Source of the DNA: a virus
Lineage: Duplodnaviria > Heunggongvirae > Uroviricota > Caudoviricetes
DNA length: 64,000 nt
Direction: 5' to 3' (one strand)
Virus record (IMG/VR): IMGVR_UViG_3300027796_000011
Span: 41,850 to 105,849 of that record
The notes beneath the pieces are model-generated. The model made no database searches, was not told the DNA's origin, and saw only the letters and a program-made list of their open reading frames with translations. Positions 44,801-62,385 of the stretch are shown piece after piece. Numbering within the stretch: position 1 is the first letter of the stretch; each line of letters opens with the position of its first letter. The position numbers were made by a program, and so were the translations under genes.

Positions 44801-45180
44801 CCACCCAATACAACTTCTCTGATAATCGCTTCGTTTGGACCTTGAAAAATGTCATGCAATTCGGTTAACAGCATGGGCCACACCTGTCCACGAAGACCTA
44901 AAAAGAACGGGTCTTCAATGAACTGCACAATGGGAACAGGCTCCCACCGGAGTCCTGTCTTGGTTGTAAGTATGGAGTAGTCACCTGTCTGGATTGCCTT
45001 CCCGACTGATTGAAAGACCTTGGAGACTTCCTCAAGTTCAAGGAATCCATCCCCATCAGTCATGTAATGCAGCAGGGACTCTACCTCTTTCTCAACCAGG
45101 GGGCGGTGTTCTTTCGGGGTGTCCTCCAGAACCATGTCCATGCCTTCCAGGGCATCTTTTAACTTGATCTGGTCTGACAT
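41830..45180 (-). CDS. terminase large subunit precursor containing an intein
   Basis: Walker A GGSIGSGKS; intein begins CFPPEQEYLASDGTFVRMD (aa 237), block B-like TKDQKFMEDSGEWIAASNM, block F/G AVYDLKNVPNTHAFFAKARSGVFIAHN, +1 Cys directly precedes Walker B LDEVNF. Confidence 0.8.
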   Translation of the reverse strand: MSDQIKLKDALEGMDMVLEDTPKEHRPLVEKEVESLLHYMTDGDGFLELEEVSKVFQSVGKAIQTGDYSILTTKTGLRWEPVPIVQFIEDPFFLGLRGQVWPMLLTELHDIFQGPNEAIIREVVLGGSIGSGKSFRAQLILAYQLYKLSCYHTPQLEYGLSSGSSIFMIFQSMSLTLARKVLFDQFSQMLRRGEYFQKYFPYDKSITTELRFPSDVTIMPVASGDTSALGLNVFTACFPPEQEYLASDGTFVRMDAGGCSPVLTYDVEGSVIRATDCPVESVLTGYKELYKVSFDNGEHIICTKDQKFMEDSGEWIAASNMPGRCFKFVDMQDMRSAGYISNTAFEKRTFDDWKGVSGDVSRGDTVYSEDDGDTEKKEISWGVGSVSSVRCGDAYDNRDTFEKTQHDSYEVSGAISKSDNEGARHCRGLFGKSTGACLRAEKSPCVYRGPARRYSEGSAPRTCKTTRVIPEPGVCCREVFSREGTVLKVVRIAESKYGISLYAGQGGCSGDGVQWQDGEVFSPGWHLIGTSFQTRVGVCFLVGFLGDSIQIRVQEASLPISREEENIYTRFRDIFRSYRGEGEPVVARRKDFNKDDCGTSDREHQVSYASNSSADGFGGVVSKTYSREGQRSDVPSTRRGFQPVLCMGIEPIFRKCAVYDLKNVPNTHAFFAKARSGVFIAHNCLDEVNFMANIENSSRAKFTGEAEYNQAQKLYSTITRRIKSRFNRRGKVPGKLCIMSSAHYPGDFVSTKKAEVDDYKAKGVPCPIYFSSLSQWEAKPVGTFSDETFLVEVGDDTRRSRIIQSKEEAIELQDVLEVPVDFLPDFQSDIDAAIRDIAGVPVGGVNLFIKDRESIVRSTKAHHKAYSGKQLFAHDSVDLNSFENLEFLLDKTYISDYLDSLNEYAIHVDLALTNDCAGLAVTHLGGWKDVGKSYDYDEKTGKVREATPGQKPLVVVDGALQIVPPMSDEIDINRIGDLIELIAAWIPLIYVTSDTFQSATLLQRMRRLRNYRGFQIKSSIVSVDKNLAPWMEVKQGLRDDRLILPDHPVLTKELRELKYDPKKQKADHPQGGGKDVGDAVAGGTYVIVAVNSGKQLKTKEVRTEVRRIRTGRPQIF
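43132..44472 (-). other. intein (447 codons) within the terminase gene
   Basis: Cys1 at aa 237 and terminal HN at aa 682-683 in the terminase frame; the central part is kept stop-free but has odd composition. Confidence 0.7.
43197..44300 (-). CDS. +1-frame ORF nested in the intein: tandem Ros/MucR-type C2H2 zinc fingers + PD-(D/E)xK endonuclease
   Basis: CKICGARVTYLTQHLKNVHSMTGRVYREMFP and CLVCGAEMRMITGTHLKKHNMTPTKYRELFP (C-x2-C...H-x3-H-x-MT...YRE); C-terminal IYIPDFETSFGLIEVKG nuclease motif; the first ~40 codons of this span overlap the intein N-terminal splicing domain and are probably not coding. Confidence 0.55.
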   Translation of the reverse strand: MIMESILYALKTKSLWRIPVSGLQPQTCQEGVLSLLTCKICGARVTYLTQHLKNVHSMTGRVYREMFPGEILCTPKMMETQRKRKSPGELVPCLVCGAEMRMITGTHLKKHNMTPTKYRELFPKATMKAQDIAEVCSEKAREHVYEQRKAPAFIEALRGGIAKVRHLGPAKLRELYQNQEYAAAKSLAAKERYLKLSVLQKANMEYHCMRGREAVLATGFSGKMVRYFRPDGTLLVLASKLELVFAFWLDFLVIPYKYESKRLPYLYQGKKKIYIPDFETSFGLIEVKGNLWLRDEKTLTKMTAARQTENIRLVTQAILQQMGLGALYRKLIREKVREVTFQALAEGFNPSCVWGLNLFLESVPCMT

Positions 45181-47180: not shown

Positions 47181-48764
47181 TTAATTTGATCGAATCAGGC
47201 GAGTAATCCCGCCCAAGGCGTCCTTTGCCTCTTGCACCCTCACCGCTTTGACAGAGGAAACCGGGGTGGCCCGCCCCTCCATCCAACGACGGAAGGCGTC
47301 AATGTTCTCCTTGTCGGTCTTGGAAAGGGGCACCATCTTGGAAGCCACCAGGGTCAAGATGTCGGTGGTAACGTCCTGGTTGCCGTCAAACGCCACATAC
47401 AAGCCCTCATCAACCACGGCCTCGATCTCTGCCCCAACAAAGCCTTCCGTAGCAGCAGAGAGCCTTGTGAGGTCAAAGTTCGCTACTTCCCGCCCGCGCT
47501 TGCGGAGGTGAATCGAAAAAATCTGCTCACGCTCAAAGTCGGCGGGAAGGTCAACCGCAAACACCTCATCCCAACGTCCTTTCCGAAACATAGCCCCATC
47601 AAGATTCCGAATGGTGTTGCAGGTCGCAATCTTGTAAATAGGGGCCTTGGTTTCGCTCATCCAAGTCAGCAGACTTCCGATGACCCGGCTGGTGACACCA
47701 GAGTCCGATTTGCCAGAGGACTCCAACCCCGCCAGGAGCTTTTCGGCTTCGTCAATCAGCAGACAGGCAGGGGCAACCGTCTCCAAGAGGCTCAAGGCTT
47801 CCTTGGTGGCCTGTTCGCTGCTGCCAACCACCCCACGGAACAGCGCACCCACATCCAGCCGATACAGCGGCAGATTCAGCACGCTGGCAATCGTCTTGGC
47901 GGAAAGGGTCTTGCCGGTTCCGGGCTGGCCGACCAGCATCAGTCCCTTGGGGGGCTTCAAGCCAAAGTCCAGGGCACTACGGTGTTCCTCGAAATAGCGA
48001 CGGCGACGGCGAACGTGTTCCTTCAGGTTGTCGAACCCTCCCAACGTATCAAAGGACTCGTCAGTCGGCATGTACTCCAAAACACCAGACTGCTTGATAG
48101 CCAACTGCTTCTCTTTCCGCAGCAGGTTGATGTCCACCCCGCGACTGCCCACAATGGAAAGAGCCATCGCGTTTTCGGCTTTCAGTCTGGTGAGTCCAGT
48201 AGCATTTTCCGCAGCCTTTTCCAGCATGTCATCAGAGATATCCAGCCCCATCGCTTCCTTGTACGCCTCGGTGATGGACGAAAACAAGGTCTTGATCTCT
48301 TCCTTGGTGGGGAGGTCAAAGTCAATGAAGGTGATGACCTCTGACAACTCTTCAGGACACTCAAATGCCGCCCCGACAAAGATCACATGAGAACCCTTGG
48401 TACGGATGGCGTAGGCGGCATCCCGAAGGGCCTGCTTGGAAAACGGGTTGTTGTCAATGAACGCCTTGGGGTTGAAGACAATGTAAAGCCTGTTCTTGTG
48501 GGGCCACCCATCATCCGACGTGGAGATGTAGCGCATCAACTCCCCAAGTTCCGTAGTGTCCTGAATCCGGTCACTGACAGGATCATCAGACGCATACGGG
48601 TACAGTCCGGTAGTGACCTTCCAGACAAAGACATTGAGAGGTTCTTCCAACCCGGCATGTTCCACGTTATGGACAATCTCTTGGAGTGCCCTTTCCTGCT
48701 CCGTAGTCCTCACATACAGACACGGATACCCTGCCAGAATATACGATGAAATATCAAAAGCCAT
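47181..48764 (-). CDS. AAA+ ATPase
   Basis: Walker A LVGQPGTGKT, Walker B CLLIDEAEK, sensor and arginine-finger region ATCNTIRNLDGAMFRKGRWD. Confidence 0.65.
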   Translation of the reverse strand: MAFDISSYILAGYPCLYVRTTEQERALQEIVHNVEHAGLEEPLNVFVWKVTTGLYPYASDDPVSDRIQDTTELGELMRYISTSDDGWPHKNRLYIVFNPKAFIDNNPFSKQALRDAAYAIRTKGSHVIFVGAAFECPEELSEVITFIDFDLPTKEEIKTLFSSITEAYKEAMGLDISDDMLEKAAENATGLTRLKAENAMALSIVGSRGVDINLLRKEKQLAIKQSGVLEYMPTDESFDTLGGFDNLKEHVRRRRRYFEEHRSALDFGLKPPKGLMLVGQPGTGKTLSAKTIASVLNLPLYRLDVGALFRGVVGSSEQATKEALSLLETVAPACLLIDEAEKLLAGLESSGKSDSGVTSRVIGSLLTWMSETKAPIYKIATCNTIRNLDGAMFRKGRWDEVFAVDLPADFEREQIFSIHLRKRGREVANFDLTRLSAATEGFVGAEIEAVVDEGLYVAFDGNQDVTTDILTLVASKMVPLSKTDKENIDAFRRWMEGRATPVSSVKAVRVQEAKDALGGITRLIRSN

Positions 48765-49135
48765 TAGTTTCTCCCTCCCACTATCTAGGAATTAAAGAGT
48801 TTCCCAATCACCGGATTCGTTCATGTACTGCATCTCTGTACATCCGTAGTTGCTCATAGCCCAATCAAGCGGGGCGAACGCAACGTCCTCACTCCCATCA
48901 TAGATGTCCTTCTTGGAGATACTACCAAGGAAGTACACGTTACCATCATCATCCAGAAGTCGGAACATCGTGCAGTCTTTCAAGGAAGCCTCTTTGGCAT
49001 AATACCCCGTCCCAACTTCTGTGTTCCTGCCCGCTTCTGGAATCAAGCAGCCTGTGATTACCCATCCCATGTTCTTTCCCTCCCCGATTTGTTGAGAACA
49101 TCCTACCTGAATTTTCCAGGTTTTGTCAAGAGAAA

Positions 49136-50242
49136 TTATCCCTTGATGTTCAAGATGGGCTTGAAGTGATTCACAACGTCGATCACAATGCCCTGCTGCC
49201 GATCAATCACCTCTTCCAAGTTCTTGTAGGCCATCGGGGACTCATCCAGGGTATGCTTGGAGACAGACGCCACAATGCCGTGCATCTCTTCCTCAAACTG
49301 CTCCACAGTAAATGCCTCCTTGGCCTTGGAACGACTCATCGTCCGTCCAGCCCCGTGAGAAGACGAGCACAGATAGTCCTCATTTCCAAGACCCTGCACG
49401 ATGTAAACCCCATCCCGCATGTTGCCGGGGATGATGCCGTACTGCCCCGCCATAGCCGGGGTGGCTCCCTTCCGGTGCAGAATACCGTCCTCAAGAATCT
49501 GTGCGTAGTTGTGAGGAACATCAATCACCAACTCCTCTTCAAAACCTATTTCAAACTCCCCCTCCTCAAAAAAATCCTCAAGAGACTCAATAACAGCCTC
49601 CAACATAGACAGGCGGTTGGTCACAGCCCAATCCACAGCAAACCGCATATCCTCATAGTATGCCCTTCCCAGGAGAGAATCGAATGCAAACCACTTTTCC
49701 CTCTTGAGGTAATGGGTACAGATACGGTGCCCCAAGTTACGAGAGCCAGAATGGATTGTGACTCCAACCTCTTTGGTAGCCGCAGACACCCCAAACTCAA
49801 TGAAGTGGTTTCCAGAGCCAAGCGTTCCTAACTGCGCGTACTGGTTGGCACGAACCTCTTCATCCAAGTCCTTATCTCCAAGGGATGACTTGAAGTCCCC
49901 AATCTCGCTGTTAGAGAACCTTCCAGTTCCCGTGGGGATATTTTTATGGATGGTATGAAACAGCCCAAGCAGATCAACATGCTCGAAAAAGTCCTCTTGG
50001 GAGATGCCGAGAGGGTAATGCAGCACGCCGCATCCGATGTCATAGCCAACGTAGCTAGGGGAGATGACGTTATCGAGGAGAGCCACCCCGCCAATGGGCA
50101 TGTCGTAGCCCGTATGACAGTCAGGCATGATAGCCACCCTCTTCACGAAGTCCAATGCAGCCACCTTCTCGATCTGATCCAGTGCTGAAGACTCAATATC
50201 CGCAATAGGCAGCATAAACGAAACCTTATCAAACTTTCCCAC
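49136..50242 (-). CDS. rtcB: RtcB-family RNA 3'-phosphate/5'-OH ligase
   Basis: MPDCHTGYDMPIGGV, DIGCGV, GSGNHFIEF, GAGR match the RtcB metal- and GTP-binding motifs. Confidence 0.8.
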   Translation of the reverse strand: MGKFDKVSFMLPIADIESSALDQIEKVAALDFVKRVAIMPDCHTGYDMPIGGVALLDNVISPSYVGYDIGCGVLHYPLGISQEDFFEHVDLLGLFHTIHKNIPTGTGRFSNSEIGDFKSSLGDKDLDEEVRANQYAQLGTLGSGNHFIEFGVSAATKEVGVTIHSGSRNLGHRICTHYLKREKWFAFDSLLGRAYYEDMRFAVDWAVTNRLSMLEAVIESLEDFFEEGEFEIGFEEELVIDVPHNYAQILEDGILHRKGATPAMAGQYGIIPGNMRDGVYIVQGLGNEDYLCSSSHGAGRTMSRSKAKEAFTVEQFEEEMHGIVASVSKHTLDESPMAYKNLEEVIDRQQGIVIDVVNHFKPILNIKG

Positions 50243-50256
50243 AACAACCTCCTAGT

Positions 50257-50634
50257 TTACAGGTACAAAGCACCCACATGCCAGTCTATAGCTCCAAGGA
50301 CCAGTTTAAGGCCTTGCTCAAGAGCATCAGCAGACAACACCAAGTCTTCTGTAAGTCTAGTGCGAAACATTTTAGGATATTCAGGCGCGTACACAGCGGT
50401 ATAAGTGTTTCCAAGAATAAAGCAATAATGGAATGAGGAGTCCATCCCACCAACAACAAAAGATACTGGCACCCTAAAGGTATTTTTAATAAACGGGGCC
50501 AGAACCTCCCCAGGAGCGTCTTCCACAGTAAAAACACCGAACTCTTTCAGGTTAAGTTCCTTGCATATACCACGAACTTCCTCCTCCTCCAAAACAAATC
50601 CAAAGAAAACAAAAGCCTTAGCGTCCATTCCCAT
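50257..50634 (-). CDS. hypothetical protein
   Basis: conserved leader GGGAGGGAACTAAC ATG. Confidence 0.35.
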   Translation of the reverse strand: MGMDAKAFVFFGFVLEEEEVRGICKELNLKEFGVFTVEDAPGEVLAPFIKNTFRVPVSFVVGGMDSSFHYCFILGNTYTAVYAPEYPKMFRTRLTEDLVLSADALEQGLKLVLGAIDWHVGALYL

Positions 50635-50783
50635 GTTAGTTCCCTCCCGATCAATTTGTTGTTGGGGAGATATTACCACTTTTTCTGGGTTTGTCAACAA
50701 AAAAGTTGAGGGCAGGACTTCTCCCACCCCCAACTCGTTAGAACTACTTAAAATGTTTTTGAAATTGACTTCAGAAATTCTAG

Positions 50784-51452
50784 CTAATCCATCAGCGGGG
50801 AGATGATCTCCCCCCACAACTTGTACCCTTCCAGGCTCAAATGAAGCCCATCTGTCGTCAGGTGAACCTTCATGTTGTTACCCTCCCCAACAAAATGAGA
50901 GTATAGATCGACAAACGTAAACGTCTTGATTTGTTTGGCATACGCAGCTAGGAGCAGGTTCGTCTTCGCTATCTGTGCCTTGTCCCGATGGTGCGTAAGC
51001 GTAAACCCTGTATGCACGGGCAGGATGCTCTGCACATAAACCTTCGTGCCTATGCTGTAGAAAGCGTTAGCAATCATCAAGATGTCCTGAACAACTCTGT
51101 CTGCGGCCTCTTGCGTTCCCCACCCGAAATTGTTGGTGCCTATCAAAAGGAACAGTTTCTTCGGATGCTCTTTTAACAGATCATACTGGCGGGCCAGCAC
51201 CCCAAGCGTAGTGTCACCAGATATACCACGATTCACCACATCCTTCTGAACAAAGTACTCAGCATAATTTGACTGCCCTTCGGTCACAGAATCTCCAACC
51301 AGAATGATTTTTCCAGTAGTAGGGTGACACCTGTACTCGTCCACCTTCTGTATGTAGTAGTCAGAAAAGGGCGGGAGGGCTTCCTTAACAGTCGCCTCCT
51401 TCCCGAACAACGCCATAATCCACACAACTATCTTCTGTAGCAGTTCTTTCAC
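50784..51452 (-). CDS. SGNH/GDSL-family hydrolase (second copy)
   Basis: GTG start after GGGGAGGAAGCAA; ILVGDSVTEGQ block I; TTDGLHLS block V. Confidence 0.55.
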   Translation of the reverse strand: MKELLQKIVVWIMALFGKEATVKEALPPFSDYYIQKVDEYRCHPTTGKIILVGDSVTEGQSNYAEYFVQKDVVNRGISGDTTLGVLARQYDLLKEHPKKLFLLIGTNNFGWGTQEAADRVVQDILMIANAFYSIGTKVYVQSILPVHTGFTLTHHRDKAQIAKTNLLLAAYAKQIKTFTFVDLYSHFVGEGNNMKVHLTTDGLHLSLEGYKLWGEIISPLMD

Positions 51453-51475
51453 TTGCTTCCTCCCCGAATTTGAAG

Positions 51476-52057
51476 TTAATTTCGGAAATTCCAAGACTGT
51501 TGCATTTCCGTCAGGAACCTTCCGTTATATGCCTTGAATTTCTCACGAAACTTGCTGCGCTTGGCATCGAGTTCTTCTGCCGGGGCCAGGGTGTGCCTCC
51601 CCAAAAGTGCCAAGGTAAAGCCGTCAGCTTCATCCCCATTGGCTACCGGCATCCCCCAAAAGTCTCGTATGGCAACCCTAACCTCTTTCTTGTCTGCTGA
51701 TGCCTTCCCGGTTGCAAATCCCTTGAGTATATTCGGCTCTGCCAACAGGAACGGGAGGCCAGTAATTTTCGGGATGGAGTGCTTTAAGTAGCCCATCATC
51801 TCCAGTCTATCAGCAGCATTACCTAACACTCCATACAATGCTGCTCTTGAGATGTCTTCAAAGACTACTACATCTCCTGGTTGAATAATGTTGAGTACCC
51901 CTTCCACCCCGATTTTTTGACGTTCCCACGACGTTTTATCTGGTTTGGTCGGGAGGGATAACGACGCAGTTTCATTCCTACCAAGGTCTATGATACCAAC
52001 CCCCGGCCTTGCCAACGAGATATCCAACCCAATGAACCTCATAGCATCAGCCTTCAT
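51476..52057 (-). CDS. RuvC-like Holliday junction resolvase
   Basis: FIGLDISLARPGVGII (RNase H-fold motif I), VVFEDISRAAL, GDEADGFTLALLG. Confidence 0.5.
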   Translation of the reverse strand: MKADAMRFIGLDISLARPGVGIIDLGRNETASLSLPTKPDKTSWERQKIGVEGVLNIIQPGDVVVFEDISRAALYGVLGNAADRLEMMGYLKHSIPKITGLPFLLAEPNILKGFATGKASADKKEVRVAIRDFWGMPVANGDEADGFTLALLGRHTLAPAEELDAKRSKFREKFKAYNGRFLTEMQQSWNFRN

Positions 52058-52380
52058 CTCCACTCTCCAGAGAGTCCAGCCAATCGAACTCCACATCTGT
52101 AGCCCAATTATACTTATTTGTAAGAAACTCTTGAAACTCTGCTCCCAACTCAGTGACATCCATATCAACCAACACTCCTTTCACAGGCACCTCTACACGC
52201 TCACCCATCAAAGTGACAATGTTCACCAATTTAAGGTGTTTCGCTGTCCCATAGCAATCCTTTATTGTATGTTCCAAACCCATACTTTTAGCAGGGATGT
52301 TCAACTTCTCAATGGCTACAACAACATTCTCACCCCAACCGATATACAACTTGCGCCCAACGATATCCCATTTCACACAG

Positions 52381-53739
52381 TTAGTCCTCATAATTATCCA
52401 CCATTTCAATACGTTTCCCGAGCCAACGCATTACGTTAACCGCCATTGAATTTCCCGACGCCTTATACCTTAGGCCATCAGGGCAATTCTCTGCGGGCTT
52501 ATTACGCCAAGGGATGGCGGTGTAGCTGTCTGGGAATCCCTGTAGTCTTTCGCACTCTGTTGGCGTCAGTCGGCGGACTTGGTAGGGGGGCTGGAATATC
52601 TTTGGCGTATTCCGCCCCGTCGCATTGGAGTTCGTGCCGATGGACGGGCAGTGAGGCGTCACAAGGACATCGCCGGATTGATTCTGGGTAAAGGCCACAG
52701 CCTGATACCCGTTCGCACCTAGAGCGTGAGCGCGGTTGTACCCTACAATGGGGTCTTGCGTAGCATGAACGCACAGTGTTTCACTTTCAAAATCTAGGCG
52801 CTGTTTAGTAGTAGTAGTAGTAGTAGCAACGTCTATAGATACACAACAACCACCACCAAAAGCACCTACTATATAAGAACCGTTATCAAGACAGTTCCTA
52901 ACTTTAGCCCCTAAAGGCCCAGATACCGTGGGGGAATGCCATAGGACATCTTCTCTAAGGCACTCCGCAATCTCGGCGGCAGCTACAATGCCTACTACAT
53001 GGGGCTGCGCTTGATCCAGCGTGTGAGTACACTCTTCACTTATTCCCCATCCGTTACTTGAGGTGTTCGCGCTCCTTCTGCCAAAGCTGTGTGTAGCATT
53101 GGAGGCAACGCTTTCCCCCGTTTTTCTGCACGGCGCAGAATCCCGGCGCACGCCTTCGCGCTCAAAAAGAATCTCTCTGGGATCGGCCCCGTCTCTAGGA
53201 CATGCGACAAGAAAGACACGCTTGCGCCGTTGTGCCAGACCGAAATATTGGGCGTCGAGGCATCTCCACGCGATTGCTCTTTCGGGACCAAGCACGAAAC
53301 CAGCGTCCGTCCATTTTCCCCCTGGAGGGAGGAGCGGACCATCTTCTCCGGCCAATGCGCCAAGTAGGCATCCGAAAGCGTTTGTTTTGTCGGACAAGAC
53401 TCCTGGCACGTTCTCCCATACTGCATATCTTGGACAAGATTCATTCACTATCCTCGCATATTGTAAAGTCAGGTTTCCACGGTCATCATTAAGTCCTTCC
53501 CTCAATCCTGCCACAGAGAAGGCTTGGCAAGGGCTACCACCAACAAGTACATCAATCCCTCTAAAGGCGTTCCCGTCAATCTGTGTAGCATCCCCAAGAT
53601 TAGGAATATTCGGGTGATGGAACTTCAACACTTCACAAGGGAAAGGGTCAATCTCTGAAAACGCTACAGGTTCCCACCCCAAACCCTTCCAAGAAACACT
53701 TGCAGCCTCTATTCCAGAAAACAAAGAAAGGTATTTCAA
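52381..53739 (-). CDS. DNA (cytosine-5)-methyltransferase
   Basis: motif I LSLFSGIEA, motif IV GGSPCQAFSVAG, motif VI AVWENVPG; variable region contains a (AGT)6 repeat encoding TTTTT. Confidence 0.8.
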   Translation of the reverse strand: MKYLSLFSGIEAASVSWKGLGWEPVAFSEIDPFPCEVLKFHHPNIPNLGDATQIDGNAFRGIDVLVGGSPCQAFSVAGLREGLNDDRGNLTLQYARIVNESCPRYAVWENVPGVLSDKTNAFGCLLGALAGEDGPLLPPGGKWTDAGFVLGPERAIAWRCLDAQYFGLAQRRKRVFLVACPRDGADPREILFEREGVRRDSAPCRKTGESVASNATHSFGRRSANTSSNGWGISEECTHTLDQAQPHVVGIVAAAEIAECLREDVLWHSPTVSGPLGAKVRNCLDNGSYIVGAFGGGCCVSIDVATTTTTTKQRLDFESETLCVHATQDPIVGYNRAHALGANGYQAVAFTQNQSGDVLVTPHCPSIGTNSNATGRNTPKIFQPPYQVRRLTPTECERLQGFPDSYTAIPWRNKPAENCPDGLRYKASGNSMAVNVMRWLGKRIEMVDNYED

Positions 53740-53742
53740 AAT

Positions 53743-53925
53743 CTAACCCTCGTATCGGTCACGGGTGCTGTAGAATCCTTCCCCCTTCAAATGAAAATTC
53801 TGGGTGGACAACTGCCGGTTTGCATCCCCACCACATCGTGGGCAGGGAGAAAACAGTACGTTCATTGGAGTCAATTCCTCAAACTCATGCTTGCATCTCG
53901 TACACTTCCATTCATATAATGGCAT
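53743..53925 (-). CDS. FmdB-family zinc-ribbon protein
   Basis: MPLYEWKCTRCKHEFE...CPRCGG. Confidence 0.5.
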   Translation of the reverse strand: MPLYEWKCTRCKHEFEELTPMNVLFSPCPRCGGDANRQLSTQNFHLKGEGFYSTRDRYEG

Positions 53926-54221
53926 AGGTTCTTGCCCTCCCGCCTAGTGGTATTGATCCAAAACACGAACACTATTCAAACCAAACAAGTATCTGCCGTC
54001 TTTTTGCTTCCCGAAAGAACTCATAGTCCAGAAGATAGTAGGATTGACCTCCGTCTCACATAGAGCATTTACGTCTTCTTCTGTCCTACCGTTTGCGTTG
54101 CAGACCTTACAACCCCACCCGGTGATAGCGGATAGGGTTGTAGGTACATGCTCTGAGGTTATCTCCGTTGCATCCCCACAATTCATGCAAATGACTACCA
54201 ATACATCTGCTTTGTGCATGG

Positions 54222-55139
54222 CTACGCCTGTATGGGAGTGGGTCTGGTTGACTGCACATCCATAAGGTACACCTTGTGTGCATATGTCCCATCATCGTAG
54301 ATATCAAAAACGACACATCCTGTATCTACAACGCCAGAGCATTGAGAGGCACCGTATATGGTGGACGGACCTTGCAGAGAGGGGAGGACCACACCGCGCC
54401 AACCTCTAGAAGCAGATTCATCGTAGTAGTGGACATGGCTACGAAGCATGATGTCTGCTTTGGGGGAGTAGTTGCGTTCATTCCACAAGATGTTCCAGAC
54501 ACGTTCTTTCTTGATGGCGGTTGCCCTCCCCCACGGGACAGAGGAACCACCTATCTTGTGCTTCACATCGAAGACCACCCCGTTCACATCCACCCACTCG
54601 TGACTTCCCACCCGCCCCTTGACGGCTTCGGCTACCAACTGCTCATAGTTGGTGAAGTCCTTCCCATTCACATGGTATGGGGTGCCCCTGGTGAACACGT
54701 TGGTTCTAGCGTCAATGAACTTGGCAATGTGAATCGCCATATCCGCCTGTTCTTTGAGGTCTGTGGTGGTCTGCTCCACCCCGCCAGACTTGTCACCCTT
54801 CCCGTCAATCAGATCACCGTTGCCGATCAGGACATCAATGGGTTGGATTTTTGAAATCAACTGCGAAAACCAATCCCACATTTCCACCTGAAGGTCAGCA
54901 TACATACGCTTCTTCTGGTCCGCTTCCTCATGCGGGGTGGATTGCCAAGGAGGCGGGGTTAGCCCCGCACGATGCCCACAATGCCAATCACCGGTAGCCA
55001 GTACCCGTTTGAAGGTTCCACGCTTATGACGGGCAAACAACCCCTGGAACGTAGACCACGGCATGTCCGTATGCCTCCATGCTTCCCGAACCTGACCACC
55101 AAACTCCTGCACCAAGTCAAAGACCTCTTTAGGCGTCAT
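54222..55139 (-). CDS. calcineurin-like metallophosphoesterase
   Basis: LATGDWHCGH, IGNGDLIDGKG, HVHYYD motifs. Confidence 0.55.
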   Translation of the reverse strand: MTPKEVFDLVQEFGGQVREAWRHTDMPWSTFQGLFARHKRGTFKRVLATGDWHCGHRAGLTPPPWQSTPHEEADQKKRMYADLQVEMWDWFSQLISKIQPIDVLIGNGDLIDGKGDKSGGVEQTTTDLKEQADMAIHIAKFIDARTNVFTRGTPYHVNGKDFTNYEQLVAEAVKGRVGSHEWVDVNGVVFDVKHKIGGSSVPWGRATAIKKERVWNILWNERNYSPKADIMLRSHVHYYDESASRGWRGVVLPSLQGPSTIYGASQCSGVVDTGCVVFDIYDDGTYAHKVYLMDVQSTRPTPIQA

Positions 55140-55749
55140 CTCTGGTATCCTCCCCGACTAAAATCTTGATCTTGCGTTCACACTGCTTGACCACCTCTCC
55201 AAACGAGTACATATGAGTCGGGATGGTCAGGAACAGACGATGCTTGTACTTGTACGGCAAATTCTCATACACAGCCCGTCTGCGATTCCAAAGAGCCTCA
55301 TCCACCATCTCATAACGATCAGGAGTTCCAAACTCCAACGTACTCATGCGCTCCCTGGCCGTCTTGTAATCCGCATCCAAGATGATCGTCAGAGGCGGGG
55401 TGGGAATCAGATTCTTCAACGCAGCATCCATAGCAGCATACTCAAGGGTCTTTCCCATCCCAGATGTTTCAATCTGGTACACATAGGTGCTGTCCGGCCC
55501 ACGATCAGCCAGATACACAACATCCATCTCCATGTTGTCCATCGTATGACGCATATCCGCCATGAAGAACAAGCATGAAGCCACTACACTCATGTCAGTA
55601 TCAGGGTCCAGCAACGTCTGGCGTACCAGTTTCCCAACTGACGTTTGACCAGGAAATCGAACAGACTGCCAATGCGGGTTGCGAGACATCAACTCCCGAA
55701 TAACGGTAGTCTTACCAGAGCCATCAACACCTTCAAACGTAATCAGCAT
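55129..55749 (-). CDS. tmk: thymidylate kinase
   Basis: ITFEGVDGSGKTT P-loop, RFPGQT (cf. REPGGT), LADRGPDSTYVYQ (cf. DRHDLSTQAYQ). Confidence 0.75.
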   Translation of the reverse strand: MLITFEGVDGSGKTTVIRELMSRNPHWQSVRFPGQTSVGKLVRQTLLDPDTDMSVVASCLFFMADMRHTMDNMEMDVVYLADRGPDSTYVYQIETSGMGKTLEYAAMDAALKNLIPTPPLTIILDADYKTARERMSTLEFGTPDRYEMVDEALWNRRRAVYENLPYKYKHRLFLTIPTHMYSFGEVVKQCERKIKILVGEDTRDDA

Positions 55750-56406
55750 CTATTCAATCTCCCTGTATATGTCTCTACACGATTCAAGTTCTTCCCTTGT
55801 AAACAACTCCCTAAGTCTGCCTATTGCCATACTAACGCGCAAGCATACGGCCTGCTTCGTAGTGCCTATCTCCTCCCCAATCATTCTGTAGTTTTTCTCT
55901 TGATGAAAGTACGCATCCAACAATTCTTTATCCTCTTCGGATAACAACTGTAACTTACAGCTCACTATAGCATAAAACCTTTGAAGTTCAAGTTGCTTAT
56001 CCGTAGTTTCTTGAGGGTCAAGACAACTACGCTCATTTAATGTGGTAGCCCCCTGAGTGTACCCATACAACTTTGTCAACTCATTAGCTACTGACTGCGC
56101 GATAGCCTTACGGATGTAAACAGTAAACTGCCCTATCTCCATTGAAGGCATGTTACGCAAGGCGACCATCACACCTAAAGCAGCCTCCCCCATACAAGAG
56201 TTTATCCAATCGTCCTTATCCACCCCAAAAATCTTAGATGTCTTATTGTAGGCATCAGTGCCCACACAGTTTTTGAAACGCCTCCAAACCTTATCCGCTA
56301 CAATCTTGAGTCGTGCATCAAACTCTTCCTTCGGAATATAACTCTTCTCCAACAGGAAGGGCTTTATAACCTCTTCAAACTCTTTCTTGTATGCTTCCTG
56401 TTTCAT
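55750..56406 (-). CDS. phage-encoded sigma-70-family sigma factor
   Basis: C-terminal region-4 HTH YRMIGEEIGTTKQAVCLRVSMAIGRLRE; region-2-like segment upstream; start MKQEAYKK. Confidence 0.6.
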   Translation of the reverse strand: MKQEAYKKEFEEVIKPFLLEKSYIPKEEFDARLKIVADKVWRRFKNCVGTDAYNKTSKIFGVDKDDWINSCMGEAALGVMVALRNMPSMEIGQFTVYIRKAIAQSVANELTKLYGYTQGATTLNERSCLDPQETTDKQLELQRFYAIVSCKLQLLSEEDKELLDAYFHQEKNYRMIGEEIGTTKQAVCLRVSMAIGRLRELFTREELESCRDIYREIE

Positions 56407-56407
56407 G

Positions 56408-59221
56408 CTAGCCACACGTTGTATAGCCGCAGGACAGGCAATGCCCACAACCATTCTCATATACATACGTTTTCTTACCACACTCTGTGCAGACCGCCCC
56501 CAACTCCTGTTCAATAATCTCCGCTTCTTCAGCATCCACTTCGGGCAGGTAAGTCCGAAGAATACGGGCAATCACCGCAGAGGCGTCCACCAGGGAATAA
56601 CTGCCCTTATCCAACTGCTTGATGACATACTCAAGCGGGATTCCGCTCCGCAGAAGAAGGCTCACCAAACGAGTGATCGTCTCCCACAGAGCATATTTCT
56701 CATTGAAGACGGCTTCGCTATACACACCGCCCCCGTTGATGCCAGCTTCGCGGGGCAGTTTCGCAAAGACTTCAACCGGGATGTCATCATCATCCAGGGA
56801 CACGATGATATACATCTTGGCACCCTTCCAAAGAACCCGGTGGCGTCTGGCCCGCTCCACTTCCAACAGATCACGGATCACCACGGACGGGAGGGCCAAC
56901 GTGTCTTCATCTTCATGCTTCTCAGTCTTCATGCTGGAAGAGGAGTCTTTAGAAATCAGAACACCGTCTTTGCACCCATCCCGAAAAACAGTGATGCCCT
57001 TCAAGCCCTTACCCCAGGCTTCGTAGTAGATATCTTCCATCTGCTCCGCAGTAGCCTCGCGGGGAAGGTTCGTCGTAGAACTGATAGATGCAGAGATATA
57101 CTTCTGAATAGCCGCCTGTACGGCAATACGGTCAGAAGGACTCACAGCATCCGCTTCAACATAACTCAGACTATCCCGCAACTCTTCCAGAGTCATGTTC
57201 TCGTACTTGGAAGGGTTGGACTCCACATGATCCAGAGCAGGGCCGTGGACACAATTAACCAGCGTATCAGAGAGGCGGGTGGCCCGCTGGTAGGAGAACT
57301 TGAAAATAGGCTCAATGCCAGAGGAACAATTCCCGGCCATGATACTGATGCTACCACAGGGGCCAACAGTGTTAAACCCAACATTCCGTAAACCATGTTG
57401 AACGATCTTTAACCTGAGTTCCGTATCCAAATAAAGATTCTTCACAAACAACGAATTGCAGAATCGAATACGTGCATCCGGGTCATTGAAAGCATCACAA
57501 CACCCAAAGTTATGAGCCAAGTCACACGAGGCATACAGTTGCTTAACTATCATCGCTTTTGTCAGTTGCGAACAAAAACGAAGAGAATCGTCACTACCAT
57601 ACTTAATGCCAAGCATTGCTAGTGCGTCGGCCAGCCCGGTGAACTCCAACCCAATACGTTTGCCAAACCTGTCAGCGTCCCGCTGTTCTTGAAGTGGGTG
57701 CTTGCTCATATTGATATCAGACATCGTATCCAGAAACAACGTAGCATCCCACACAGCGTCCTCAAAGCCTACCCAATCAAAACGGGCACTGTCCGTCCAA
57801 GGGTTAATCACAAACTTATGTAGAACCAGGGCGGCTAAAAGACAATTATTCCAATACCCTAGTGGCTGTTCGCCGCATTGCCCCGTGATAATACCAGTAG
57901 CCAACGCGATTTTATGTGTTGTAGGGATAGTACAGCAGTAGACAGTATGCTCTCCAGGTAGACACTCTATACTGCGGATGATCCCCCGATCACTATGCAC
58001 GCCTCTCGGATAACATGAGTCAAGAGCATCCCCAGGCTTCAGTTCTTTTGCCTGAAGTTTACTTCCGTCTTCCAAGTACATCGTATGGTACGGAGTCACA
58101 TCAATATAAGGGTCTTCCCGGAAGTGAATACGAAGAAGTTGCTGCCCCTCCCCCGTCACACGGAAGTTATTACATTGAACCCACGCGTTACCATCGAAAA
58201 CAGTGACTTCCTTCCCGACCAAATCCTTAATGGGGGTTGGACCGTTAGAGGTGGCAATCAACGTGTCACCACTGAAACAAGGATTAGTTCCCATAGGAAC
58301 CAACGACTCATGTACCGCAGAAGCAGGGTCTTCCTGCTGAACCCTGTCAATGAAGAGCATCCCCGGATCACCACATGACCAGTTCGCTTCGCAGATGTCT
58401 TTGAAAATTTCGCGGGCAGGAACCTTCCCAAAACTTTTGACCGGATAGCCATTCTTCAACCACGCATCATAGTTGCCATCCCACTCTTTGTTGTAGAGTT
58501 CTTTGTTGGCTTCAATGTCAGGGAAGATAAACTCCCACTCTTCATCGTTCTCATACGCATTCATGAAGTCATCTGTAACTTTGAGGCTGATGTTGGCCCC
58601 AGAGATATCAGGAACCCTACCCGTAAGGTTGTCCTTCCCGAAAACCCGCTCCGGGTTGGCCTTCGACCAAATGAAGTCCAAAGCATCTGGATGCCGGATG
58701 TCCAGGGACACAAGAAGTGCGCCGCGCCTCCCGTTCTGTCCGATGGTCTGTGTGACCTCAGAGAAGAGAGGCATGAAGGACACCGCACCAGAGGATGTCT
58801 TAGCAGCATTATCCACAGAAGAACTTTTAGGGCGCAAGATGGTGATATCCGTCCCGCAGCCCCCCCGCAGGGCGTAAGTGCGAGACATCTTCTTCTGTGC
58901 TTCAAAGATGCCTTCCAGGGAGTCTTCCTCGATCTTGATGAGGTAGCAGTTGGACAATGAGCAGCGGACTTCTGTGTTGCCAAGTCCGTAGAGAATAGAA
59001 CCAGCAGGGATGAACTTTCCATCCCGCAAAAGTTTAGCTATGGAGTCATCCTCTTCTGAGGAGTACTTGGAGACTTTGGTGAACTCCTGCACAACCCGCT
59101 CAATTACGTCGTCAAAAGACGATTCTCCTTGATGACAATACTTCTTCTGGGCGACCATACTGATGAAATCTTCCCGGTCTTTCAACCCGACTTCAATATC
59201 TTTCTTGGTAATGTGCGACAT
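56408..59221 (-). CDS. ribonucleotide reductase (probably class II, NrdJ-like) containing a mini-intein
   Basis: GTNP|C...|CGEQP: the active-site NPCGE is interrupted; C-terminal CTECG...CGHCLSC zinc ribbon; no glycyl-radical motif. Confidence 0.7.
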   Translation of the reverse strand: MSHITKKDIEVGLKDREDFISMVAQKKYCHQGESSFDDVIERVVQEFTKVSKYSSEEDDSIAKLLRDGKFIPAGSILYGLGNTEVRCSLSNCYLIKIEEDSLEGIFEAQKKMSRTYALRGGCGTDITILRPKSSSVDNAAKTSSGAVSFMPLFSEVTQTIGQNGRRGALLVSLDIRHPDALDFIWSKANPERVFGKDNLTGRVPDISGANISLKVTDDFMNAYENDEEWEFIFPDIEANKELYNKEWDGNYDAWLKNGYPVKSFGKVPAREIFKDICEANWSCGDPGMLFIDRVQQEDPASAVHESLVPMGTNPCFSGDTLIATSNGPTPIKDLVGKEVTVFDGNAWVQCNNFRVTGEGQQLLRIHFREDPYIDVTPYHTMYLEDGSKLQAKELKPGDALDSCYPRGVHSDRGIIRSIECLPGEHTVYCCTIPTTHKIALATGIITGQCGEQPLGYWNNCLLAALVLHKFVINPWTDSARFDWVGFEDAVWDATLFLDTMSDINMSKHPLQEQRDADRFGKRIGLEFTGLADALAMLGIKYGSDDSLRFCSQLTKAMIVKQLYASCDLAHNFGCCDAFNDPDARIRFCNSLFVKNLYLDTELRLKIVQHGLRNVGFNTVGPCGSISIMAGNCSSGIEPIFKFSYQRATRLSDTLVNCVHGPALDHVESNPSKYENMTLEELRDSLSYVEADAVSPSDRIAVQAAIQKYISASISSTTNLPREATAEQMEDIYYEAWGKGLKGITVFRDGCKDGVLISKDSSSSMKTEKHEDEDTLALPSVVIRDLLEVERARRHRVLWKGAKMYIIVSLDDDDIPVEVFAKLPREAGINGGGVYSEAVFNEKYALWETITRLVSLLLRSGIPLEYVIKQLDKGSYSLVDASAVIARILRTYLPEVDAEEAEIIEQELGAVCTECGKKTYVYENGCGHCLSCGYTTCG
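57878..58279 (-). other. mini-intein (134 aa) in the RNR, ending in Gln
   Basis: begins CFSGDTLIATSNG (block A), TPYHTMYLEDGSKLQAKELKPGDAL (block B), HTVYCCTIPTTHKIALATGIITGQ followed by the +1 Cys of NPCGE. Confidence 0.65.
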
Positions 59222-59327
59222 CCCGCCTCCGGGTAGATTTGTATTTTTGAAGTTGATTGCAGAAAAGTTTGGGAAGCCCCAACATCCATGTCAAGGCTTC
59301 CCTATTGCGGGGAGGGTGGGTAGCTAA

Positions 59328-59771
59328 CTAGGTGGTGGAAAACTTAAACCGGACACTAGGGCCAAGCATCCCGCGCAACCGCGAGATAAGCCCATGCTCA
59401 AACTCAGACACCGTAGACTTCCGAAGGGCTTCATACTGCTCCTTGGCACGCTGCTTCAGGCACCAATCACAGTTACACTCTGGGCCGTCATCGTCCTCTG
59501 CGTCTGCGTATCCCTCATCCACATCTTCCTCAAGAGACAGGTCTTCAGGGATATCATCCACCCCGGAATCGTGCTCGTAGAACTCAAAACCGTCAGTAAC
59601 GGTCTTGCCGTTTTCCTGCACAACCAGGAAATCGACAGAGCCAGAGCCGTCACGCTTCATGGTCAGCGTGAACTCTTCCAGTTCACCCTCACACATGTCA
59701 TCAAAAAAACACAGGGTGTTGTCGCAAAACTCCATCACTTCATCACGCTCTTCTTCACAAAACTGTTGCAC
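59328..59771 (-). CDS. highly acidic Cys-containing protein
   Basis: 147 aa, D/E-rich. Confidence 0.35.
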   Translation of the reverse strand: MQQFCEEERDEVMEFCDNTLCFFDDMCEGELEEFTLTMKRDGSGSVDFLVVQENGKTVTDGFEFYEHDSGVDDIPEDLSLEEDVDEGYADAEDDDGPECNCDWCLKQRAKEQYEALRKSTVSEFEHGLISRLRGMLGPSVRFKFSTT

Positions 59772-59797
59772 GTTGACCTCCCCGCTGTGGCGGGCTG

Positions 59798-60703
59798 TTA
59801 GAATGTCTGAGCAGCAGCTAGCTGCTCTTTATACCACTCTGGAAATCCTCTGGTAGCCACACGCAGTACATCCCTACCAAATATCTCCCAGAGTTTGTCC
59901 TTGATGTTGTCCTTCTCCTCTTCTGTGATGTCCGAAGTGATCTCCTTCAGAAGAGGGCCGATGTCCTGCGGAGTCTCTGTGAGCCTCCCATCTTCCCGCA
60001 AATGGTTTATAGCCTTATGCCAGCGGGCAGGAGTGCAGTACCCCTCAGACATAACTTCAAACTTACCCTTACCAGTGTTCTCTTTCTTCCAATTTGCGCC
60101 ATTCACCTCTTTGAACTTCTCAGACACAAATTTTCCACAAGTAACGGGGTACTCCTTGTCTTGGAAGTAATGCGTTTGAGCGTAGTTCTTAACAACAAAC
60201 CCCTCAATCATGCTACCACCAAGAAAGGACATCCTATTCAGCCACACAGAGAAATCCTCGCTGACGGAACAAGTCCCCGTGTAGATGAGGGGAGCTACGT
60301 CAATGCCTAACCGAGAAGCAATATCCTTCTTCTCCCCCCTGGTAACAAAGTTTTCCATTTTCAGATCATACACATCCCACAAGACCAGATTCCCTTTGGG
60401 GGTGTGATCGTAGGCCAACGTGTTGTGTTTCGGACGGCACAATGCCTCTGTGTAATAAATGTACCTGGATTCCAAAAGGCTCTCAACACTCAAAACATGT
60501 GCAATCGAAGGCTGAAATAACTTGTCAGCAGTACCCGCAAAAACTTCAGCACGCTTGCTACGGAAGTAGACCTCTGTGCTTGGCTTTGCGAACACAAAGC
60601 AAGAGCCGTCCACCTTCTCTTCCACGAAGACCTTTCCGTGAAACAACTTCCCAAGTCGCTTGTCTCCAATGGCGGCTATCTTTTGGAATCCAGGCAATTT
60701 CAT
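59798..60703 (-). CDS. ATP-dependent polynucleotide ligase (Rnl2-like RNA ligase or minimal DNA ligase)
   Basis: motif I EEKVDGSCF (KxDG), motif IV SMIEGFVVK, motif V CGKFVSEKFKE. Confidence 0.55.
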   Translation of the reverse strand: MKLPGFQKIAAIGDKRLGKLFHGKVFVEEKVDGSCFVFAKPSTEVYFRSKRAEVFAGTADKLFQPSIAHVLSVESLLESRYIYYTEALCRPKHNTLAYDHTPKGNLVLWDVYDLKMENFVTRGEKKDIASRLGIDVAPLIYTGTCSVSEDFSVWLNRMSFLGGSMIEGFVVKNYAQTHYFQDKEYPVTCGKFVSEKFKEVNGANWKKENTGKGKFEVMSEGYCTPARWHKAINHLREDGRLTETPQDIGPLLKEITSDITEEEKDNIKDKLWEIFGRDVLRVATRGFPEWYKEQLAAAQTF

Positions 60704-61100
60704 GCTACGCCCCCTTGGTAGCCGTAACAGACTTCCGCATGGTGGAACGGAAACTATCCTCCATGTTCCGCATGGAGAGGGTCCGAAGACAGATAGCCTG
60801 ATCCTTTGTCATCCCGCCCTCAACCTCAAACCGCTTGATGGCGTGCAACGTCTCATCCACACTGCAATCCGTGACATACCGAAGAGCCGCCCGAAAAATG
60901 GGGTCAACATCAGAAGCCAAAGTCTTGAGTGTTTGCACAAACGCCTTGAACTCCGGGTCATCCTTCAGAAACGGCAGCAGCCGCGCAAACTGAGCCAGTT
61001 CACTAATATCCAAGGTACTCCCTCCCAATTTTTTGAAGTTAATTTCAGGACTCCTGCCCCAACCGTCGAACGAGTATAATAAGTCGTTTCTCTAGGTTTG

Positions 61101-61994
61101 TCAAGAAGTTTTTTCAAAGTTTTTTTGACATTGCTCTTTCATAGGACAATTCCTACCCCGATACGTTGCGAAGGCTCCGTCCCGACACTCTGGGAGAGGG
61201 TCTGGAACATAGGTAGGGTCCACCACCCCGCGATTGAAGGACTCCAATGTGTCTTGGAGATACCCTACAACGTCAGGGTCTTTACGCACAGGGAACACCT
61301 TGACCGGGATACCCTTCTGGTGCCTCTTGCTGATGTAGGCAACAAAGCCCTTGTCAGGGTTGAACTGCACCGGAATCTGGGTATCTGCTTGCATCAGCAT
61401 CATGTAAGCATTGACCTGTATCGTGTGGTCCCCCTTCGGGGCGGTCATAGCCTCAAAGTCCTTCCCCGAACAGGTCTTGAAGTCCAAAATGCGAAGATCA
61501 CCTGGAGCCACTTCCACGAACCCGTCAATATGCCCCGTGACCCTGTAAGGGGTTTCCATCTTTAGGCTGTATTCAGAGTAGTTGATACACCTTACTGAGG
61601 AACCACAGCCAGAACACTCTTGAGAGGGACGCCGCCCGAAATACATAAAGCCGCAGTTAAGGCACTGCCACCAACCCAGGAAGTTCGTGGACAAATAGTC
61701 ACCAGAGTCTTGCAAGTACCTGTGAACAGCGTTACCAATGTCAAAGGTCATCTGCAATCCAGCCGGGGTGGCCCTCCCCCACATAACACCAGAGCGTAGT
61801 CCAAGAATCTTCTCACGAACACATACGTCATGCAGGGACGAACAACGTAAGAAGGACGAATACGGGAACTGCTCCCGCTTCGTAGTCATGTTGAACAGCG
61901 CGTGCGCCAAAAGTTGCGGGTCGGCTATGCCGTCCACTTCCGCACTCTTAACTGGTGCTGTCACATCTGAAGAGTAAGTCCTGATAAATCTCAT
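61101..61994 (-). CDS. Cas4/RecB-like PD-(D/E)xK nuclease with C-terminal Cys cluster
   Basis: GHIDGFVEV...LRILDFKTCS (D...D/ExK); C-terminal CRDGAFATYRGRNCPMKEQC Fe-S-like cluster; central Cys4 CLNCG...CSGCG. Confidence 0.5.
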   Translation of the reverse strand: MRFIRTYSSDVTAPVKSAEVDGIADPQLLAHALFNMTTKREQFPYSSFLRCSSLHDVCVREKILGLRSGVMWGRATPAGLQMTFDIGNAVHRYLQDSGDYLSTNFLGWWQCLNCGFMYFGRRPSQECSGCGSSVRCINYSEYSLKMETPYRVTGHIDGFVEVAPGDLRILDFKTCSGKDFEAMTAPKGDHTIQVNAYMMLMQADTQIPVQFNPDKGFVAYISKRHQKGIPVKVFPVRKDPDVVGYLQDTLESFNRGVVDPTYVPDPLPECRDGAFATYRGRNCPMKEQCQKNFEKTS

Positions 61995-62385
61995 CTTAAA
62001 AACCCCATACGTTGGCGTCTAAGAGCCACAATCTTTTCAAGCAGCGAGTCTAGCGTTTCAGTAGGCATATGCCATACGGTCTTACCCGTGGGCTTCACAT
62101 CCTGACCCCATCCCGCCATGTAATCCTGCCGCTTCATGCCAAGTTGCTCAATAACTTCCTGCACTACAGAATCTCTAGGTTCCTTCCACCCCAACCCATC
62201 TGTCAGGTAAATGAAGCCTTCGGCACAGTCACGTTGGAACCAAGCCCCCTCAACAATATCCCCAATAACCTCTGAGGCTGTGATGTCGTCATCCATCTGT
62301 TGAGTCCTCCCCAATTTTTTGAACTCAATTTCAGAGCGTATTATACACAATTTTCCAGATTTTGTCAAGAGAAATTATCGTGCTC

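Follow-up and report, generated by a model that had tools for sequence, protein, structure and literature searches.

Ribonucleotide reductases (RNRs) are the second most common bacterial host of inteins, with 211 inteins recorded, and a further 43 are known in archaea (PMC4760082). Within these enzymes, the site most frequently invaded lies just N-terminal to the thiyl-radical cysteine (Dassa et al. 2009, PMC2677866). Here we describe an occupant of this site in an uncultured phage. The window, by which we mean the whole stretch of DNA analysed, comprises 64,000 nucleotides (positions 41,850 to 105,849 of the Caudoviricetes record IMGVR_UViG_3300027796_000011 in IMG/VR), and the element in question is a 134-residue insert in its nrdJ gene, which encodes a class II RNR. 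Judged from its sequence and its relatives, this insert is very probably a functional class 1 mini-intein.

Several described inteins resemble it. A tblastn search of the 134 residues against GenBank phages matched 296 records. The phiCbK-like Caulobacter phages carry an annotated NrdA intein of the same family at the same site (E=7e-10; SNL/CVTGETEILT...VFCATEP...GYLTGN/CSEI, slashes outside brackets marking splice junctions), the cysteine following SNL in their class I reductase and NP in the class II reductase of the window. Their intein has 307 residues, ends in Asn and interrupts a class Ia enzyme, whereas the one described here has 134 residues, ends in Gln and interrupts a class II enzyme. 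The RNR alpha subunit of a cultured phage, Nitrincola phage 1M3-16 (NC_024217), contains a 136-residue mini-intein at the equivalent site (SNL/CVAGGTL...SYCFNEPLRNMGVFNGILTGQ/CQEI), which shares with the window's insert a Cys at the fourth position of block F (F:4), a penultimate Gly and a terminal Gln, but its host enzyme is of class Ia and the intein identity is only 29%. This mini-intein (L003, 2001-2408) is not annotated in the GenBank record. A related intein occurs in the class II RNRs of Thermus phages TSP4, P23-45 and G20c, its sequence having been read in TSP4 only (INP/CLAGDTL...CHSGN/CAE). The TSP4 enzyme (L002, MH992131, 1469-4258) is annotated as two coding sequences, an in-frame stop falling inside its LAGLIDADG intein (...CHSGN/CAEILL); this stop either marks a broken intein or is an error of sequencing in a record flagged UNVERIFIED.

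Other parallels are more distant. Chilo iridescent virus (CIV), which we compared by description only, likewise has an intein with a native Gln end in the large subunit of a viral RNR (RIR1), although the virus is eukaryotic and the enzyme belongs to class I. Allelic mini-inteins exist beside the full-length form in the RIR1 genes of the Wiseana and Costelytra iridescent viruses (PMC1635734). In DNA polymerase II (Pol II) of Pyrococcus abyssi (Pab) and P. horikoshii (Pho) there are natural mini-inteins with a C-terminal Gln for which splicing has been shown and structures solved (PMC4031507; PMC8229266); these differ in being archaeal, in their DNA polymerase host, in a His-Gln end, in splicing more slowly with Gln and in belonging to another sequence family (rank 49 in our Foldseek comparison). 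The NrdJ-1 split intein from the GOS metagenome (PDB 8ubs) occupies a phage-like class II RNR active site and has a matching Hint fold (Foldseek rank 13), but it is naturally split into halves that flank a free-standing endonuclease gene, lies one residue further towards the C-terminus and ends in Asn (PMC2677866). The class 3 inteins, such as that of mycobacteriophage Bethlehem DnaB, have in common with the window's intein a Cys at F:4 and a Thr at the fifth position of block G (G:5); unlike it, they lack an N-terminal nucleophile, carry Trp at B:12 and are mostly followed by Ser or Thr at the +1 position (PMC2807308). A degenerate DNA pattern for VYCCTVP was matched at 120 loci or more in GTDB genomes, mostly by chance; among the matches listed, four open reading frames (ORFs) passed an intein hidden Markov model, three could be parsed and two were clear members, one of them in a metagenome-assembled genome of an Acaryochloridaceae cyanobacterium.

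The reductase gene and its parts are laid out in the window as follows, with the basis of each assignment in brackets.

56408-59221, minus strand: class II (adenosylcobalamin) RNR precursor gene, 937 residues plus stop (ORF list, Pfam, TIGR02504)
58280-59221, minus strand: N-extein, residues 1-314, ending ...LVPMGTNP with the Asn-Pro of the NPCGE active-site motif (BLASTP break at extein position 314/315)
57878-58279, minus strand: putative mini-intein, 134 residues, precursor residues 315-448, Cys1 to Gly133-Gln134 (translation, TIGR01445, alignment, AlphaFold2, Foldseek)
58241-58279, minus strand: block A, intein residues 1-13, CFSGDTLIATSNG, with the Cys1 nucleophile (alignment; C1, T10 and G13 invariant)
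58067-58108, minus strand: block B, residues 58-71, YIDVTPYHTMYLED, with Thr62 (B:7), His65 (B:10) and Met, not Trp, at B:12 (alignment)
57983-58018, minus strand: linker, residues 88-99, SCYPRGVHSDRG, where relatives carry a LAGLIDADG endonuclease (alignment with the P0002 intein)
57902-57949, minus strand: block F, residues 111-126, HTVYCCTIPTTHKIAL, with Cys115 (F:4, usually Asp) and His122 (alignment; Y114 and C115 invariant)
57878-57898, minus strand: block G, residues 128-134, TGIITGQ, with Thr132 (G:5), Gly133 (G:6) and Gln134 (G:7) (translation)
57875-57877, minus strand: codon of Cys+1, first residue of the C-extein, splice nucleophile and thiyl-radical Cys of the RNR (alignment to 1xje)
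56411-57877, minus strand: C-extein, residues 449-937, CGEQPLGYW... to the C-terminus (sequence)
56549-56830, minus strand: TSCPD domain within the C-extein (Pfam)
56411-56491, minus strand: Cys-rich, zinc-ribbon-like C-terminal tail within the C-extein (sequence)

Read on the minus strand, the interval gives 134 codons without interruption (CFSGDTLIAT...HTVYCCTIPTTHKIALATGIITGQ), with the C-terminal end IALATGIITGQ, while its plus-strand translation is riddled with stops. An earlier sequence-only reading of this DNA had placed the insert at these coordinates and given this sequence, both of which we confirm to the base; it had left the strand unstated. The 937-residue protein (P0001) recurs in identical copies on five contigs, and the places shown are three samples (a 106-kb JGI contig and two SRA assemblies), which rules out an artefact of assembly. 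Intein and exteins have similar GC contents (0.485 and 0.50, respectively), so that base composition shows no clear trace of a recent arrival.

By its sequence matches, the host protein is a class II, B12-type RNR (NrdJ). Pfam identifies the PF02867 barrel (E=1.4e-92) and the PF12637 TSCPD domain (residues 798-891), and TIGR02504 (NrdJ_Z) scores 401.5 bits against a cutoff of 399.95. With the insert removed, the 803-residue product aligns to Thermotoga maritima NrdJ (PDB 1xje) without a gap across the junction (query GTNPCGEQPLGYW, 1xje STNPCGEIGLSDY), GTNPCGEQPLG pairing with STNPCGEIGLS, so that Cys+1 corresponds to C322 between N320 and E324, as counted along the alignment. Cys322 of the T. 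maritima enzyme, flanked by Asn320 and Glu324, is the established thiyl-radical cysteine. The insert parts Asn-Pro from Cys-Gly-Glu, and the first residue of the C-extein is the radical cysteine itself; aligning the exteins to NrdJ, the check proposed beforehand, has in this way fixed the insertion point. A megablast search of the RNR gene against phage genomes returned no match, and a scan of IMG/VR for close RNR relatives found none.

Sequence and predicted fold both place the 134 residues among inteins. They form an in-frame insertion with Cys1 in block A, a Thr-x-x-His in block B (TPYH), Gln134 followed by Cys+1, and a match to TIGR01445, the intein N-terminal splicing region (30.3 bits against a cutoff of 24.5, E=6.5e-7, residues 1-68), which is what characterizes a class 1 intein. 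Weak phmmer matches among PDB sequences, to the Pho RadA and Tvo VMA inteins, place blocks B and F in register; with Pho RadA, VTPYH pairs with VTPSH (in VTPSHPVLL), VYCCTIPTTHKIALATGII with VYDLVIPETHNFIAPNGLV, and VYCC with VYDL. When the intein alone served as query, a word-index protein search found nothing, but an exhaustive HMMER search found the family: phmmer against 1.84 billion representative proteins gave 1338 matches at E<=1e-3 and 268 at E<=1e-10. In a 28-sequence alignment of mini-inteins (A1), C1, T10, G13, I17, L20, G22, W33, T62, H65, Y114 and C115 are invariant. An AlphaFold2 model, itself a prediction from this 28-sequence alignment, is all-beta with a mean predicted local distance difference test score (pLDDT) of 94.8 and a predicted template modelling score (pTM) of 0.86, and is soft only at residues 91-100 (pLDDT 79). 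The 50 best Foldseek matches to this model in the PDB all have the Hint (Hedgehog/intein) fold; nearly all are inteins, joined by two bacterial intein-like (BIL) and two Hedgehog autoprocessing domains. NpuDnaE reaches the best template modelling (TM) score, 0.85, with a root-mean-square deviation of 1.9 Å, and Npu and Ssp DnaB, Mtu RecA, gp41-1 and the NrdJ-1 split intein are also among the matches. The 134 residues are thus modelled as a Hint domain.

A BIL domain was considered as a candidate in its own right and rejected, given the Cys+1 and the position of the insert inside the RNR active site.

Does the site behave as an intein site, or is the extra sequence simply a loop native to this lineage of reductases? 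We surveyed the 120 RNR homologues that best matched the exteins. In 66 of them the motif NPC[G/A]E is uninterrupted, and in 46 an insert ending in Asn or Gln precedes C[G/A]E, in what appears to be the identical position; when the spliced query is compared with homologues by BLASTP, the match breaks into 1-315 and 312-803. Empty and filled sites occur even among near neighbours, five of the fifteen closest homologues having an empty site (P0006, P0011, P0012, P0015 and P0016) and nine an occupied one. The occupants are themselves mixed alleles, comprising the window's type (..VYCC..G[Q/N]/C) and canonical inteins (..VYDF..HN/C). Such sporadic, multi-allele occupancy is that of a homing site and not of a clade-specific loop. 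Two observations could nevertheless be read as favouring a native loop without a Hint domain, namely that many homologues have extra sequence at the same point and that the Pfam Hint models fall below their gathering scores. We give this explanation practically no chance: homologues 51-55% identical lack the insert and read NPCGE; the extra sequences of the others are themselves inteins, which belong to several unrelated alleles and have Cys1 and [N/Q]/C ends; TIGR01445 lies above its cutoff; every solved structure that the predicted fold matches is a Hint-fold domain, and nearly all are inteins; and extra residues between the Pro and the radical Cys would break up the active site as 1xje shows it. 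The claim that the 134 residues split NP from CGE as an insertion consequently stands, on the strength of the 66 contiguous homologues and the gap-free alignment to 1xje, and an insertion native to the clade and devoid of Hint blocks, named at the outset as the finding that would overturn it, was looked for and is not what the homologues display.

Besides their active-site intein, two of these homologues, P0004 and P0005, have a second insert of about 410 residues at extein position ~163; the window's RNR gene has one insert only.

The window's intein can be compared with a full-length counterpart. Its nearest relative, in a metagenomic NrdJ (P0002), is a LAGLIDADG intein of 346 residues at the same site and with the same end (GIITGQ/CGEQP), the exteins being 89% and 86.5% identical to those of the window. 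The P0002 intein retains both LAGLIDADG motifs, YLKGFLLAEGHL and KFLAGLFDGDGTV. Amino acid identity between the two inteins is 84% over residues 1-87 and 67% over the last 36 residues, and between these parts the 12 residues SCYPRGVHSDRG stand in place of some 212 residues of P0002; this linker is also where the confidence of the model drops. No endonuclease family was matched within the 134 residues in scans of Pfam and TIGR/NCBIfam. On this alignment the window's intein is identified as a deletion derivative of a LAGLIDADG intein of about 346 residues, with the linker as the deletion scar. The proposal of a Hint domain lacking an endonuclease is therefore upheld by TIGR01445, Foldseek and the alignment with P0002 alike. 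Among 134 relatives of the intein at this site, 49 are mini-inteins and 85 are full length, which indicates that loss of the endonuclease is frequent.

Substitution patterns speak to whether the shortened element still splices. Against P0002, the N-terminal part of the intein has 0.091 nonsynonymous (pN) and 0.67 synonymous (pS) differences per site, with a ratio of the corresponding rates (dN/dS) of 0.058, and the C-terminal part has a dN/dS of 0.135, compared with 0.077 and 0.111 for the two exteins; these ratios are rough, the pS of about 0.7 in the intein being near saturation, although pN is still far below pS. The splicing regions are, by this measure, evidently under purifying selection, like the exteins. 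Since an unspliced precursor has a broken active-site motif, selection on the exteins in turn implies splicing.

The terminal residue, Gln134 (codon CAA, 57878-57880, minus strand), was among the features noted in the sequence-only reading, and translation bears out that the insert ends in Gln and not in the canonical Asn. The implied rarity of this ending does not hold, however: the site is the commonest in RNRs, and Gln is the majority end in the family, with 78 Gln, 55 Asn and one Arg (P0203) among the 134 relatives, a 58% share of Gln that is biased by the selection of these relatives for similarity to a Gln-ending query. Gly precedes the terminal residue in 112 of the 134. Close relatives differ in this respect, P0002 and P0014 ending in Q and P0003, P0004 and P0005 in N. 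A change from Gln (CAR) to Asn (AAY) takes two base changes, by way of His or Lys. We looked for covariation of the terminal Q or N with the His or Asn of block F, with G:5 and with the +2 extein residue, and found none.

Precedent for a C-terminal Gln is ample. For inteins that end in Gln or Asp, splicing by the class 1 route with cyclisation of that residue is assumed (PMC4031507), and His-Gln is listed in reviews as a standard intein ending (PMC2874743). The effect of Gln on splicing varies: in the CIV RNR intein, replacing the native Gln by Asn makes splicing less efficient (Amitai et al. 2004, as cited in PMC4031507), whereas in the Pab and Mma PolII inteins it is Gln that gives the slower reaction (PMC4031507). 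The Gln end was correctly observed and is no surprise; in this respect the intein is an ordinary addition to a well-known group.

Certain observations count against a functional mini-intein and have to be weighed. Pfam Hint_2 (PF13403) and Intein_splicing (PF14890) match below threshold, with E=0.019 and 0.24. Two common assisting residues are absent, the penultimate His being replaced by Gly133 and the Asp of F:4 by Cys115; neither is obligatory, and functional inteins with alternative residues at G:6 are documented (PMC4031507). Only 7 of the 46 occupied sites in the extein-selected survey end in Gln. We found no published splicing assay for the window's protein or for any member of the VYCC...G[Q/N] family. 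The predictive nature of the model, the near-saturation of pS and the bias in the Gln count, given above with the respective values, belong on the same side.

One explanation that builds on such observations is that the element is an intein by descent which has lost splicing, a decaying remnant that inactivates nrdJ and leaves a pseudogene or a gene with another role. The homing endonuclease has been lost, the canonical penultimate His and F:4 Asp are missing, and degeneration has been proposed for some of the phage RNR genes that inteins interrupt (Dwivedi et al. 2013, PMC3653736). Decay is nonetheless very improbable here. The frame is intact across 937 codons, every residue invariant in the family is kept, and the splicing regions have dN/dS values (0.06-0.13) at the level of the exteins (0.08-0.11). 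Moreover, the Gly at G:6, the Cys at F:4 and the terminal Gln are majority states in a large family (268 members at E<=1e-10) and not private lesions, and the identical protein recurs across several samples.

The Cys at F:4 deserves attention in its own right. Cys115 (codon 57935-57937, minus strand) is invariant in alignment A1, and a Cys follows the aromatic residue of block F in about 115 of the 134 relatives, with G:5 mostly Thr. In standard inteins F:4 is usually Asp, with Trp in PRP8 and Cys in the class 3 inteins marked by Trp, Cys and Thr (WCT) (Tori et al. 2010, PMC2807308). The pattern ..YC..[G/K][Q/N]/C recurs in related inteins inserted elsewhere in the same RNRs, which makes the F:4 Cys a clade trait. 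Searching the literature, we found no biochemical studies of this clade of RNR active-site inteins.

Membership of class 3 itself was examined and ruled out: the intein has Cys1, the class 1 T..H of block B, Met at B:12 (Met or Phe in relatives) and Cys+1.

It is tempting to speculate that this large clade, defined by Cys1, the F:4 Cys, the G:6 Gly, a Gln or Asn end and a radical Cys at +1, might splice with the help of the F:4 thiol, as an intermediate between classes 1 and 3, or act as a redox-gated switch, though we hold this to be unlikely. Cys115 would then be an auxiliary or branch nucleophile, or else a disulfide partner of a catalytic Cys, and splicing would follow a variant route or be under conditional control. 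Such a scheme overlaps with the reading of the insert as a class 1 mini-intein and does not exclude it. In its favour, the invariant F:4 Cys and the usual Thr at G:5 make up two of the three WCT residues, and a Cys at F:4 is reported for WCT inteins where standard inteins usually have Asp (PMC2807308); disulfide switches are also known in other inteins, among them the Gln-ending Pab PolII intein, to go by a title cited in PMC4031507 (Nicastri et al. 2013). What makes a variant route doubtful is that Cys1 is invariant, the class 1 Thr..His is present and B:12 is Met or Phe, so that nothing requires a departure from class 1; furthermore, grafting WCT onto a class 1 intein gave no class 3 splicing (PMC7664689). 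Cys115 would lie beside Cys1 and Cys+1, with three cysteines clustered at the splice centre, and in the switch version active reductase would be released only under reducing conditions.

Translated in frame within the 937-residue precursor, the insert keeps Asn-Pro apart from Cys-Gly-Glu, and such a precursor cannot work as a reductase. Both the course and the efficiency of splicing are inferred; from the class 1 mechanism and the residues present, the steps would be these. At the bond between Pro314 and Cys315, Cys1 (Cys315 of the precursor) would first undergo an N-S acyl shift, aided by Thr62 and His65 of block B. The N-extein would then pass by trans-thioesterification to Cys+1 (Cys449), which is to become the thiyl-radical Cys. 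Cyclisation of Gln134, to a glutarimide and not the succinimide formed by Asn, would free the intein, with no penultimate His assisting, and an S-N shift would finally rebuild the NP-CGE peptide bond to give the 803-residue enzyme.

The history of the element may be sketched as well. It descends from a LAGLIDADG homing intein of about 346 residues, whose target in RNRs of both class I and class II is the group of codons that immediately precedes the thiyl-radical Cys. Deletion of the endonuclease (about 212 residues) has left the element an immobile passenger, which has probably persisted because any inexact removal would ruin an active site that is essential.

The gene content around nrdJ is phage-like, and no nucleotide-level relative of the window was found in the phage collection. 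The neighbouring features assigned are listed below.

47181-62368 (within), minus strand: AAA ATPase, RtcB, GDSL lipase-like protein, C5 DNA methylase, metallophosphatase-like protein, thymidylate kinase, sigma-70 region 4, NrdJ, RNA ligase and PD-(D/E)XK nuclease
8063-9079, minus strand: nucleotidyltransferase
10091-11272, plus strand: PhoH-like ORF

The RtcB-like ORF (49136-50242, minus strand) has a GTG start and matches positions 134-426 only of the Pfam profile; the ORF upstream of it (50257-50817) has no family match.

The window had also been said to contain two inteins within its 64 kb, and the second is indeed present, in the large terminase gene. Its parts are the following.

41830-45180, minus strand: large terminase ORF, 1116 residues (Walker A motif GGSIGSGKS, fold comparison)
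43132-44472, minus strand: terminase intein, 447 residues, residues 237-683 (absent from homologues)
43197-44300, minus strand: nested ORF, out of frame by one base, with a Ros/MucR zinc finger and a T7 endonuclease I-like nuclease

The terminase ORF matched no family in Pfam or PHROG, and a profile search of its family against PDB sequences likewise found nothing; its identity came from fold comparison. An AlphaFold2 model of the homologue P0270 (pLDDT 73) has as its top 11 PDB matches large terminases, namely those of HK97, T4, D6E, phiV-1 and G20c. The intein reads ...LNVFTA/CFPPEQEY...AVYDLKNVPNTHAFFAKARSGVFIAHN/CLDEVNF, and the closest terminase homologues (P0270-P0275, 666-740 residues) lack the insert and read ..SALG.N...[L/V/Y/F/S]DE.NF, their uninterrupted DE.NF placing the insert just before Walker B.

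The central part of this intein has the look of sequence read out of frame, and it is here that the nested ORF lies. In the product of the latter, a Ros/MucR zinc finger (PF05443, 46.9 bits with a cutoff of 25.4) precedes a PD-(D/E)xK module resembling T7 endonuclease I (phrog_945, E=3.7e-7; weak matches to PDB 1m0d and 2jsp). Over the 1104 nucleotides concerned the intein frame contains no stops, whereas in 2000 versions of the nested ORF with synonymously shuffled codons that frame had 17.6 stops on average and was never free of them, which indicates that both frames are being kept open. Among homologues, none with this arrangement of terminase intein and nested nuclease was found. A homing endonuclease in a separate reading frame of an intein was first reported in a 2025 preprint on actinobacteriophages, the case described there being an endonuclease VII-like gene in frame 3 (bioRxiv 10.1101/2025.01.02.630785). 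The terminase intein of the window would be a further example, with a nuclease of a different family, and is the more interesting of the window's two inteins.

For intein biology at large, the RNR mini-intein adds little, being another endonuclease-less intein fixed at the most invaded RNR site, and nothing in it opens a long-standing question. For annotation, the locus is to be treated as one nrdJ gene with an intein, whose mature enzyme has 803 and not 937 residues. The close full-length relative P0002 dates the deletion of the endonuclease. Within the family, the widespread Cys at F:4 represents a variation on the catalytic centre that is of possible practical value, and a compact intein of 134 residues with Cys1, Cys+1 and a Gly-Gln end may offer a scaffold for protein engineering, provided that its splicing is good.

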